A program made the translations under genes and the position numbers. 4,902 nucleotides of DNA from the IMG/VR virus record IMGVR_UViG_2703718771_000001, one strand, 5' to 3'. The notes beneath the pieces are model-generated. The model was given only the letters and a program-made list of their open reading frames with translations. It made no database searches and was not told the origin of the DNA. The DNA comes from a virus. Its lineage: Duplodnaviria; Heunggongvirae; Uroviricota; Caudoviricetes. Positions 412 through 2,380 of this stretch are shown in pieces. Every line of letters starts with the position of its first letter. Positions within the stretch are counted from its first letter, which is position 1.

Positions 412-669
412 CGTAACCTGTCGGATCGCCGGAAAGGACCCGCGAAAATGATAATGGTTATCAGTTGCAGCAAATCCAGTTTCTTCCACCATCGCACCGG
501 ACCAGCGACCATGAGGGGACAACGCCGCGCTCCGTTTACGCGGTAAACCCCGGTGTGTATCGTTTTTGATTATCCCCGCACACTCGCGCAGAGGAGTCTC
601 CCTGTCGGGCTGCGGTCTCTGTTAATGCAGGAATACGGCGACAATACCGCGCATGGATAATAAGGTCGC

Positions 670-894
670 TCAACACACTGGCTGTAATGCAGCGGATGCC
701 ATGCGGCATTTAGCGGCATTCATCGTACACTCCACGGTTAGTTCTTCATTCGTGGCATTCACCTGAAAGGTCCGGGAGTGTAATTGCGTACATTTACCAC
801 TGAACGAACCTTCAACAAGAACACGACCACGCTGCAAAATACGGAACGGAATTGTTCCCTGAAAAGGTTCTACGGTTATCCGTAATTTCTTCAT
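670..894 (-). CDS. Hypothetical 74-aa protein between Rz/Rz1 and cos; function unknown
   Basis: ATG at 894..892 preceded by GGAGG (plus 'cctcc' 899..903) at 4-nt spacing. The start overlaps the stop of the Rz reading frame as ATGA (plus 891..894 'tcat'). No signal peptide or transmembrane segment is obvious; four Cys residues. I do not recognise the family. Confidence 0.5.
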   Translation of the reverse strand: MKKLRITVEPFQGTIPFRILQRGRVLVEGSFSGKCTQLHSRTFQVNATNEELTVECTMNAAKCRMASAALQPVC

Positions 895-1385
895 GTATCC
901 TCCGGATAATAAAAAGCCTGCTTAGTACACTGAGTGCGGATATAGTCCTGTGCCCCTTCCACCTGCTTCTGCATTGTCATCAGCCGTTCTCTGAGGATGA
1001 AATAATCCCGTTCAGCGGTGTCTGCCAGTCGGGGGCCGGTTGCATTATCCACGCCGGAGGTGCCGGTGGCTTCACGCACGGTACCGGGGCAGGTGGCGTT
1101 GATCCGCAGGCGCTTACGACCAGCGGCAACATCAGCGCGCAGAGTTTAATTTTCAGCTCTCGCATCGGCTAATTCCCTCGAGTATCTGGCATCAAGTGCA
1201 GCAACATCACGCTGGCGCTGCTGCATATCAGTAATGGTGGCGTTCGCCTTCTCCAGTTCACTGGCCTTGTTATCGCGCTGCTCTTTGTAGGCGATTGCGT
1301 TATCACGGTAATGATTAACAGCCCATGACAGGCAGACGATGATGCAGATAACCAGAGCGGAGATAATCGCGGTTAACCGACTCAT
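891..1385 (-). pseudogene. Rz: Rz i-spanin (inner-membrane spanin subunit) interrupted by an in-frame TAA at 1146..1148
   Basis: ATG at 1385..1383 gives [29 protein letters not shown]... (N-terminal TM helix then coiled coil), resembling lambda Rz from memory. After 79 codons the frame hits TAA (plus 'tta' 1146..1148). The same frame then continues without further stops as [73 protein letters not shown]... to the stop at 891..893, and this part resembles the lambda Rz C-terminal domain. The two ORF-track entries 1146..1514 and 891..1079 are in one frame (1514-1079=435). Confidence 0.7.
980..1165 (-). CDS. Rz1: Rz1 o-spanin (outer-membrane lipoprotein spanin subunit)
   Basis: 61 aa, [20 protein letters not shown]...: lipoprotein signal peptide with lipobox ending in Cys20, then a Pro-rich mature region ([28 protein letters not shown]) as in lambda Rz1. 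Encoded in the +1 frame relative to Rz, as expected for spanins. Confidence 0.8.
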
Positions 1386-2304: not shown

Positions 2305-2380
2305 TGGTGCTGGTTAACGGACTTGAACCGCTACCCATTCGCTTACAAGGCGACTGCTCTACCATTGGAGCTAAACCAGC
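2305..2380 (-). tRNA. tRNA-like gene, predicted anticodon TGT (Thr), 76 nt including encoded CCA
   Basis: Minus-strand sequence GCTGGTTTAGCTCCAATGGTAGAGCAGTCGCCTTGTAAGCGAATGGGTAGCGGTTCAAGTCCGTTAACCAGCACCA. By hand fold: perfect 7-bp acceptor stem, 4-bp D stem (GCTC/GAGC) with GG in the loop, anticodon loop CTTGTAA, T arm with TTCAAGT loop. One G-A mismatch at the top of the anticodon stem and one G-T wobble in the T stem. Not run through tRNAscan. Confidence 0.55.

Follow-up and report, generated by a model that had tools for sequence, protein, structure and literature searches.

The 74-codon open reading frame between the lysis genes and cos of a lambdoid prophage, hereafter gene A (product, protein A), is on comparative evidence a genuine protein-coding and selectively maintained prophage gene. 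It is very probably a real, expressed late accessory gene of the PHROG 2571 family. The best explanation overall, to which we give a probability of roughly 0.7, is that gene A is a late-operon cargo gene with its own Shine–Dalgarno (SD) sequence, left over from a two-gene A–B module, and that its product belongs to PHROG 2571, forms a β-sandwich, and has a binding role. The gene is already catalogued, as a RefSeq hypothetical protein and in PHROG 2571, and is an uncharacterized accessory cargo gene of a well-known kind; a literature search found no characterization of gene A or of its partner, gene B.

The window (the whole stretch of 4,902 nucleotides that was analyzed) carries on its minus strand the late-regulatory and lysis end of the prophage, in the order NinG, Ser/Thr phosphatase, Q antiterminator, tRNA-Asn, tRNA-Thr, S21-type holin, SAR endolysin, Rz with embedded Rz1, gene A, a non-coding stretch, cosN, and Nu1. 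The following features are used below.

670–894, minus: gene A, ORF of 74 aa (ATG 894–892, TGA 672–670)
899–903, minus: SD sequence GGAGG, 4 nt before the gene A ATG
891–1385, minus: Rz (i-spanin) reading frame, 164 codons (ATG 1385–1383, TGA 891–893)
980–1165, minus: Rz1 (o-spanin), intact, inside Rz
475–660, minus (late-transcript strand): conserved non-coding tail, candidate structured RNA
400–411, minus: cosN 12-nt cohesive-end sequence, GGGCGGCGACCT
1–222, minus: Nu1 (lambda-type terminase small subunit), 5′ part, running off the window
2305–2380 and 2386–2460, minus: phage-borne tRNA-Thr(TGT) and tRNA-Asn(GTT)

The ORF at 670–894 with its 74 residues, GGAGG site, ATGA overlap, and truncated Rz upstream, all described in a first-pass annotation of this DNA, were confirmed in the sequence, and the placement of the ORF between Rz/Rz1 and cos agrees with cosN at 411–400 and the start of Nu1 at 222. 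The tRNA-Thr(TGT)/tRNA-Asn(GTT) pair between Q and the holin sits in the late operon's other cargo slot.

Coding capacity and distribution of gene A

The length of the ORF is by itself unremarkable and not beyond chance, as the window holds many spurious ORFs of that size and some longer ones; the significance of gene A comes from comparative evidence. We extracted 104 gene A loci, representing 29 distinct DNA sequences. The frame was kept in all 104 copies, which encode 69 to 76 aa and differ by in-frame indels only, and it remained stop-free across 18 to 40% DNA divergence; frameshifted singletons (P0011, P0014, and P0001) were rare. Among 14 divergent alleles, the annotated frame gave a median pairwise dN/dS of 0.31 with zero internal stops, whereas the other five frames of the region contained 19 to 95 stops each. 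Omega was 0.88 to 1.6 in four of these five frames; the fifth, an antisense frame that has its third positions in common with gene A, gave 0.37 with 19 stops. The synonymous excess was significant in six of seven phylogenetically independent pairs (binomial p < 0.01; 7.5e-5 to 7e-3), and omega was 0.25 for the N-terminal 56 codons versus 0.44 for the C-terminal third. In RefSeq/PGAP, this frame is entered as hypothetical protein WP_032313457.1 and comes immediately after a 164-aa Rz. The first-pass annotation had proposed a survey of related prophages for conservation and purifying selection; neither disruption of the frame nor a lack of codon-level constraint, the outcomes named as adverse, was observed.

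Gene A DNA was present in 1,244 of 5,426 complete E. coli genomes (about 22%), with up to six copies per genome. The protein was found in 26 phage records, mostly of Stx phages, and the copy in phage Stx2_95 was 100% identical. A scan of IMG/VR with gene A returned near-identical copies only, and no confirmed relative of protein A was found in a scan of GTDB species-representative genomes.

Family and predicted fold of protein A

Protein A (8.2 kDa, pI 9.5) matched the PHROG 2571 profile with an E-value of 2.9e-27 over residues 1–73. Members of this family of unknown function include phage mEp237 gp60 and the RefSeq annotations of gene A in close relatives, namely, WP_032313457.1, WP_000736096.1 (an allele 71.6% identical to protein A), and WP_000736382.1 (a 71-aa variant). 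For mEp237 gp60, hhalign gave a probability of 99.6%. We found 49 homologs with phmmer and 44 matching proteins when a profile was run exhaustively against 1.84 billion representatives; among these 44, the wider family comprises proteins of 71 to 81 aa plus a few fusions and shows the pattern MK.L.VT...F.V.Q.G..L.ED..SGK...Y...Y.VDA.D..L.VEH. Remote relatives with 23 to 37% identity occur in Salmonella, Enterobacter, Yersinia, Providencia, Xenorhabdus, and phage mEp237; those from the five bacterial genera are all annotated as hypothetical, and the remote homologs hold the same length and strand pattern. The PHROG profile has 291 positions, and we considered whether protein A is a fragment of a longer protein; this was rejected because full-length members have 69 to 81 aa, and the few long proteins that match the family (P0063 and P0064) are fusions. 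PHROG 2571 members share their size and late-operon position with gene A of the window, whereas the window allele differs from other members in being without B, in being basic (pI 9.5), and in having a start that overlaps an extended Rz.

An AlphaFold2 model of protein A, built from an 18-sequence alignment, had a mean pLDDT of 86.3 and a pTM of 0.68 and contained seven strands and one short helix. Protein A is thus predicted to be a compact, soluble, single-domain, small all-β sandwich. A sequence scan detected no signal peptide, lipobox, hydrophobic N-terminus, or transmembrane (TM) segment; the highest Kyte–Doolittle 19-residue mean was 0.63, corresponding to no hydrophobic segment, in line with the small cytoplasmic protein envisaged at first pass. 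That annotation had not recognized the protein, and the searches bear this out, PHROG 2571 being the only family matched. Pfam and NCBIfam gave zero matches, the PADLOC defense models gave 0 families at E ≤ 1, and a PDB sequence search with the single sequence and the profile gave none below E 0.17. With neither a Pfam/NCBIfam match nor a TM segment, protein A could not be placed among the spanins, holins, or antiholins.

Among small β-sandwich binding modules, we compared protein A with CBM6/35/36, LecB-type lectins, and the FN3-like FNIII-A domain of lambda J. Identities were 6 to 16%, Foldseek E-values were not significant, and no ligand-binding residues could be mapped onto protein A from the CBM, lectin, or FN3 modules; against FNIII-A of the tail-tip protein J (PF24801), protein A scored below the Pfam gathering threshold. 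Such modules normally occur as domains within larger extracellular proteins, whereas protein A is free-standing and predicted to be cytoplasmic. No specific structural or sequence homolog pointed to a function. Nucleic-acid binding, suggested by the basic pI, was ruled out because relatives are acidic, and a metal-binding or disulfide role of the four cysteines was ruled out because the wider family does not retain the cysteines found in the E. coli clade.

Expression signals, the cargo slot, and partner gene B

The gene A ATG and the Rz-frame TGA (893–891) overlap as ATGA, from which the first-pass annotation had suggested coupling to Rz translation. The overlap is present here but is not general. 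In most relatives, Rz ends ...CAGTG(T/C)AT(T/G)AAG TAG, 22 to 24 nt upstream of the gene A ATG, and most lineages have 0 to 24 nt between the Rz stop and the start of gene A. In the lineage of the window, this TAG is changed to CAG and Rz grows from 155 to 164 aa, running into the gene A ATG; the nine added codons (QAFYYPEDT; window 891–920 compared with L094, L099, L103, L085, and L089) are translated across the gene A SD. Because this extension is confined to the lineage of the window, the ATGA overlap and any coupling to Rz are a derived, lineage-specific by-product. By contrast, the SD and ATG of gene A are conserved in nearly all lineages, with a purine-rich SD in 14 of 15 upstream contexts that were read, the exception being L092, with GGAGT.

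Rz of the window carries an in-frame TAA at 1148–1146 (codon 80, GAA to TAA), a change that is an M-to-I missense in the embedded Rz1. It was seen in only 1 of 81 related loci, which marks it as a recent private lesion, and the codon-80 stop probably leaves this prophage without a functional two-component spanin. The loss of coupling to gene A through this truncation, raised at first pass, probably matters little, because what is conserved is the SD of gene A itself, and the TAA is unlikely to shut down a gene with a strong SD on a transcript that would be antiterminated. A simple consensus scan found no sigma-70-like promoter on the gene A strand within 230–1500. Nor did it place a terminator-like site downstream of gene A; the sole nearby minus-strand terminator-like match (858–843) falls inside the gene A coding sequence. 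The absence of a promoter-like site upstream fits transcription from a Q-dependent late promoter, and together with the co-orientation of gene A with the late genes it is consistent with the earlier suggestion of expression with the late/lysis operon.

Gene A was located in the late operon beside the lysis cassette in every context read, all of them in temperate Enterobacterales phages. In the E. coli/Salmonella clade, it is always 3′ of the i-/o-spanin genes on the same strand and is followed by packaging modules of the Nu1/GpA, DUF1441/GpA, or HNH plus Terminase_2 kind. One context has an unrelated holin/M15-peptidase cassette before gene A, the Yersinia gene follows a holin_3_3/DUF2570-LysC cassette, and the Providencia and Xenorhabdus genes lie between Q and the holin, apart from the spanins. 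Since remote homologs follow other spanin types or precede the holin, gene A is not tied to Rz or cos; these homologs mostly come together with the second small gene, B, described below. A cos/terminase accessory role was ruled out because gene A occurs with Nu1-, DUF1441-, Terminase_2/HNH-, and Terminase_4-type packaging modules.

Irrespective of the packaging genes that follow, the window and its relatives are homologous over the 3′ part of Rz, gene A, and approximately 190 to 235 nt beyond (670 to 475/435). The conserved tail was found in 398 phage records versus 26 for gene A. In VT1-Sakai and VT2-Sakai, the slot is empty and the tail starts 9 nt after the Rz stop, and in lambda and ev207 the tail follows bor. 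The interval from Rz to the tail is therefore a cargo slot, which may be empty or hold bor, A, or A plus further genes, as the first-pass annotation had supposed. Gene A is dispensable for lysis and packaging, since it is missing from sister phages whose Rz and tail are nearly identical. Gene A is 82% identical to the Stx2a/2c-phage allele, whereas the flanking Rz segment is 94 to 96% and the tail 97 to 98% identical; a divergent ORF between near-identical flanks indicates that gene A is an allelic cassette, its alleles being swapped through recombination within those conserved flanks. A 9-nt direct repeat, TTATTATCC, stands on both sides of gene A (904–912 and 655–663, minus strand). An origin of the ORF-less phages by deletion between these repeats was rejected, as the VT1/VT2-Sakai junction does not carry that signature, and the repeat may be a chance occurrence.

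The bor gene of lambda lies on the opposite strand, has its own promoter, and encodes a secreted lipoprotein that is expressed in lysogens. Gene A resembles bor in its dispensability, its patchy distribution, and the variable slot, from Rz/Rz1 to the tail, that it fills, but it is co-oriented with the late operon and has no detectable promoter or signal peptide, and the two show no sequence similarity. In a Xenorhabdus prophage (L114 3699–3941), the post-Rz slot, which is filled by gene A in E. coli, holds an 80-aa gene with a weak Pfam match to Acb2_Tad1_hairpin (anti-CBASS/Thoeris sponge), adjoining a GhoS-like gene. This weak match hints that the post-Rz slot can carry counter-defense cargo.

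The tail is a non-coding element of about 185 nt that begins approximately 10 nt after the gene A stop. It lies at about 46,845–47,035 in lambda (NC_001416), between bor and lambdap78, and at 1495–1681 in L104/L105 (L104 being VT2-Sakai), 1494–1676 in L106, and 5151–5340 in L089. The consensus fold consists of nested helices, including GTATCGT/ACGATAC, TATTCCCGCAT/GTGCGGGAATA, and CGCAG/CTGCG; 96% of cells are paired, nine pairs show compensatory changes, and the fold scores were reached by 0 of 500 shuffles. The excess of G·U over A·C (76 versus 5 cells) accords with an RNA on the late-transcript strand, and the tail matched no Rfam family. It is thus a conserved, apparently structured RNA and a candidate 3′ stabilizer or processing element of the lysis operon. 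VT2-Sakai orf48 (L104 1479–1739; 86 aa), annotated as an "Rz-like spanin," overlaps the tail; because the region is conserved in an RNA-like pattern, this annotation and the PHROG 6954 label look doubtful.

In six lineages, gene A is followed 39 to 94 nt downstream, on the same strand, by gene B (68 to 73 aa, PHROG 4280), with the pattern MFVE..LKADPDN.GWVLGWAVVR..PWHLVGVYAT...YGSHRLGSDDF. Copies of gene B are located as follows.

L085 2765–2980 and L086 2766–2981: E. coli
L089 4265–4471: Salmonella
L107 4341–4559: Yersinia (lineage L107–109)
L112 1801–2022: phage mEp237, gp61 (A is gp60)
L114 1736–1951: Xenorhabdus

The A–B pairing occurs in five genera, where B is 62 to 88% identical across genera versus 23 to 37% for A, and the Xenorhabdus pair lies upstream of the holin, which indicates that A and B travel together. 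Homologs of B also occur in Pseudomonas phages. B is annotated as hypothetical everywhere, with a weak, sub-threshold Pfam match to DUF7457 and no relative in the PDB. B is absent from the window, where the conserved tail directly follows A and tblastn detected no remnant of B; it carries a nonsense codon in L101 and is truncated in L097/98. Omega of A was 0.13 to 0.27 in the B-associated clade versus 0.25 to 0.49 in the B-less clade. The B-less lineage L096/P0017 showed 16 to 20 non-synonymous versus 2 to 5 synonymous changes relative to its closest relatives, giving an omega of 1.3 to 2.6 that is not significantly greater than 1 by a binomial estimate. A and B each have their own SD within the late operon. 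That location, the 39- to 94-nt gaps, and the absence of toxin–antitoxin-related Pfam domains in A or B speak against a toxin–antitoxin pair.

Possible functions of protein A

In the model that we favor, gene A would stand last in the lysis part of the Q-antiterminated late operon and would be expressed late, from a pR′-type transcript, through its own GGAGG. The ancestral state of PHROG 2571 would have been a two-gene module with the more conserved partner B of about 70 aa, of which the lineage of the window retains A alone. Protein A would act late in infection by binding a ligand or a partner protein. We hold the odds that it is a non-catalytic binding protein to be about even; its 74 residues, the lack of a conserved catalytic motif, and the lectin/CBM/FN3-type fold argue for binding over catalysis. 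More tentatively, protein A may modulate an interaction with the host or with competitors, of the counter-defense or exclusion type and outside lysis itself. We prefer such a role because A evolves fast while B is conserved, the distribution is patchy, and the alleles are shuffled. It is likewise conceivable, as a speculative extension, that A and B form a previously unrecognized two-protein late-phase module that serves as an arms-race device, with B as the effector or scaffold and A as the diversifying specificity subunit.

The main rival is that protein A is a lysis accessory or regulator that works with the holin, endolysin, and spanins, for example, in lysis timing or spanin function. This would explain the constant location of gene A beside the lysis cassette, but phages with near-identical Rz and tail do without the gene, so it is not needed for lysis, and in Providencia and Xenorhabdus it stands upstream of the holin, apart from the spanins. 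Both positions are, moreover, known permissive cargo slots of lambdoid late operons, and protein A has no membrane or periplasmic targeting, whereas the holin, spanins, and murein belong to the envelope. We consider a lysis role unlikely. It seems improbable that gene A is a bor-like moron for lysogenic conversion, benefiting the host through expression from the repressed prophage: although gene A fills the slot occupied by bor in lambda and ev207 and is very frequent in pathogenic E. coli prophages, it lies on the late-operon strand and bor on the opposite one, the simple consensus scan gave neither a promoter-like site on its strand within 230–1500 nor a terminator-like site after it, its product has no signal peptide or lipobox, and its start is close to the Rz stop in most lineages.

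We regard as very improbable that gene A is a non-functional conserved ORF, either hitch-hiking with Rz and the tail or decaying as a remnant after the loss of B. Decay would suit the higher omega of the B-less clade, the excess of non-synonymous changes in the L096 lineage, the rare frameshifted singletons, and a carrying prophage whose Rz is already broken. However, omega stays well below 1 within the B-less clade, the 104 divergent copies contain zero stops, homologs of only 23 to 37% identity keep the length and strand pattern, and AlphaFold2 folds the protein confidently.

For specialists, gene A is a solid but unsurprising annotation, which alone leaves the understanding of lambdoid phages unchanged; among the leads, the A–B module and the structured tail are of greater interest. 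The borders of the recombination hotspot are now defined as the Rz stop, the cargo, and the conserved structured tail. If the A–B module is real, A would be swapped as an allelic cassette, a pattern typical of arms-race proteins (counter-defense and superinfection exclusion), and would keep a stand-alone activity in the widespread EHEC/Stx-phage lineage without B. Roughly one in five complete E. coli genomes carries gene A, many of them in several prophages at once; Stx-converting phages carry it as well. A real, selected late gene and an A–B module that spans the Enterobacterales would be a concrete and cheap target for phage-accessory-gene screens, in which A and B may be assayed for counter-defense, exclusion, and lysis timing.
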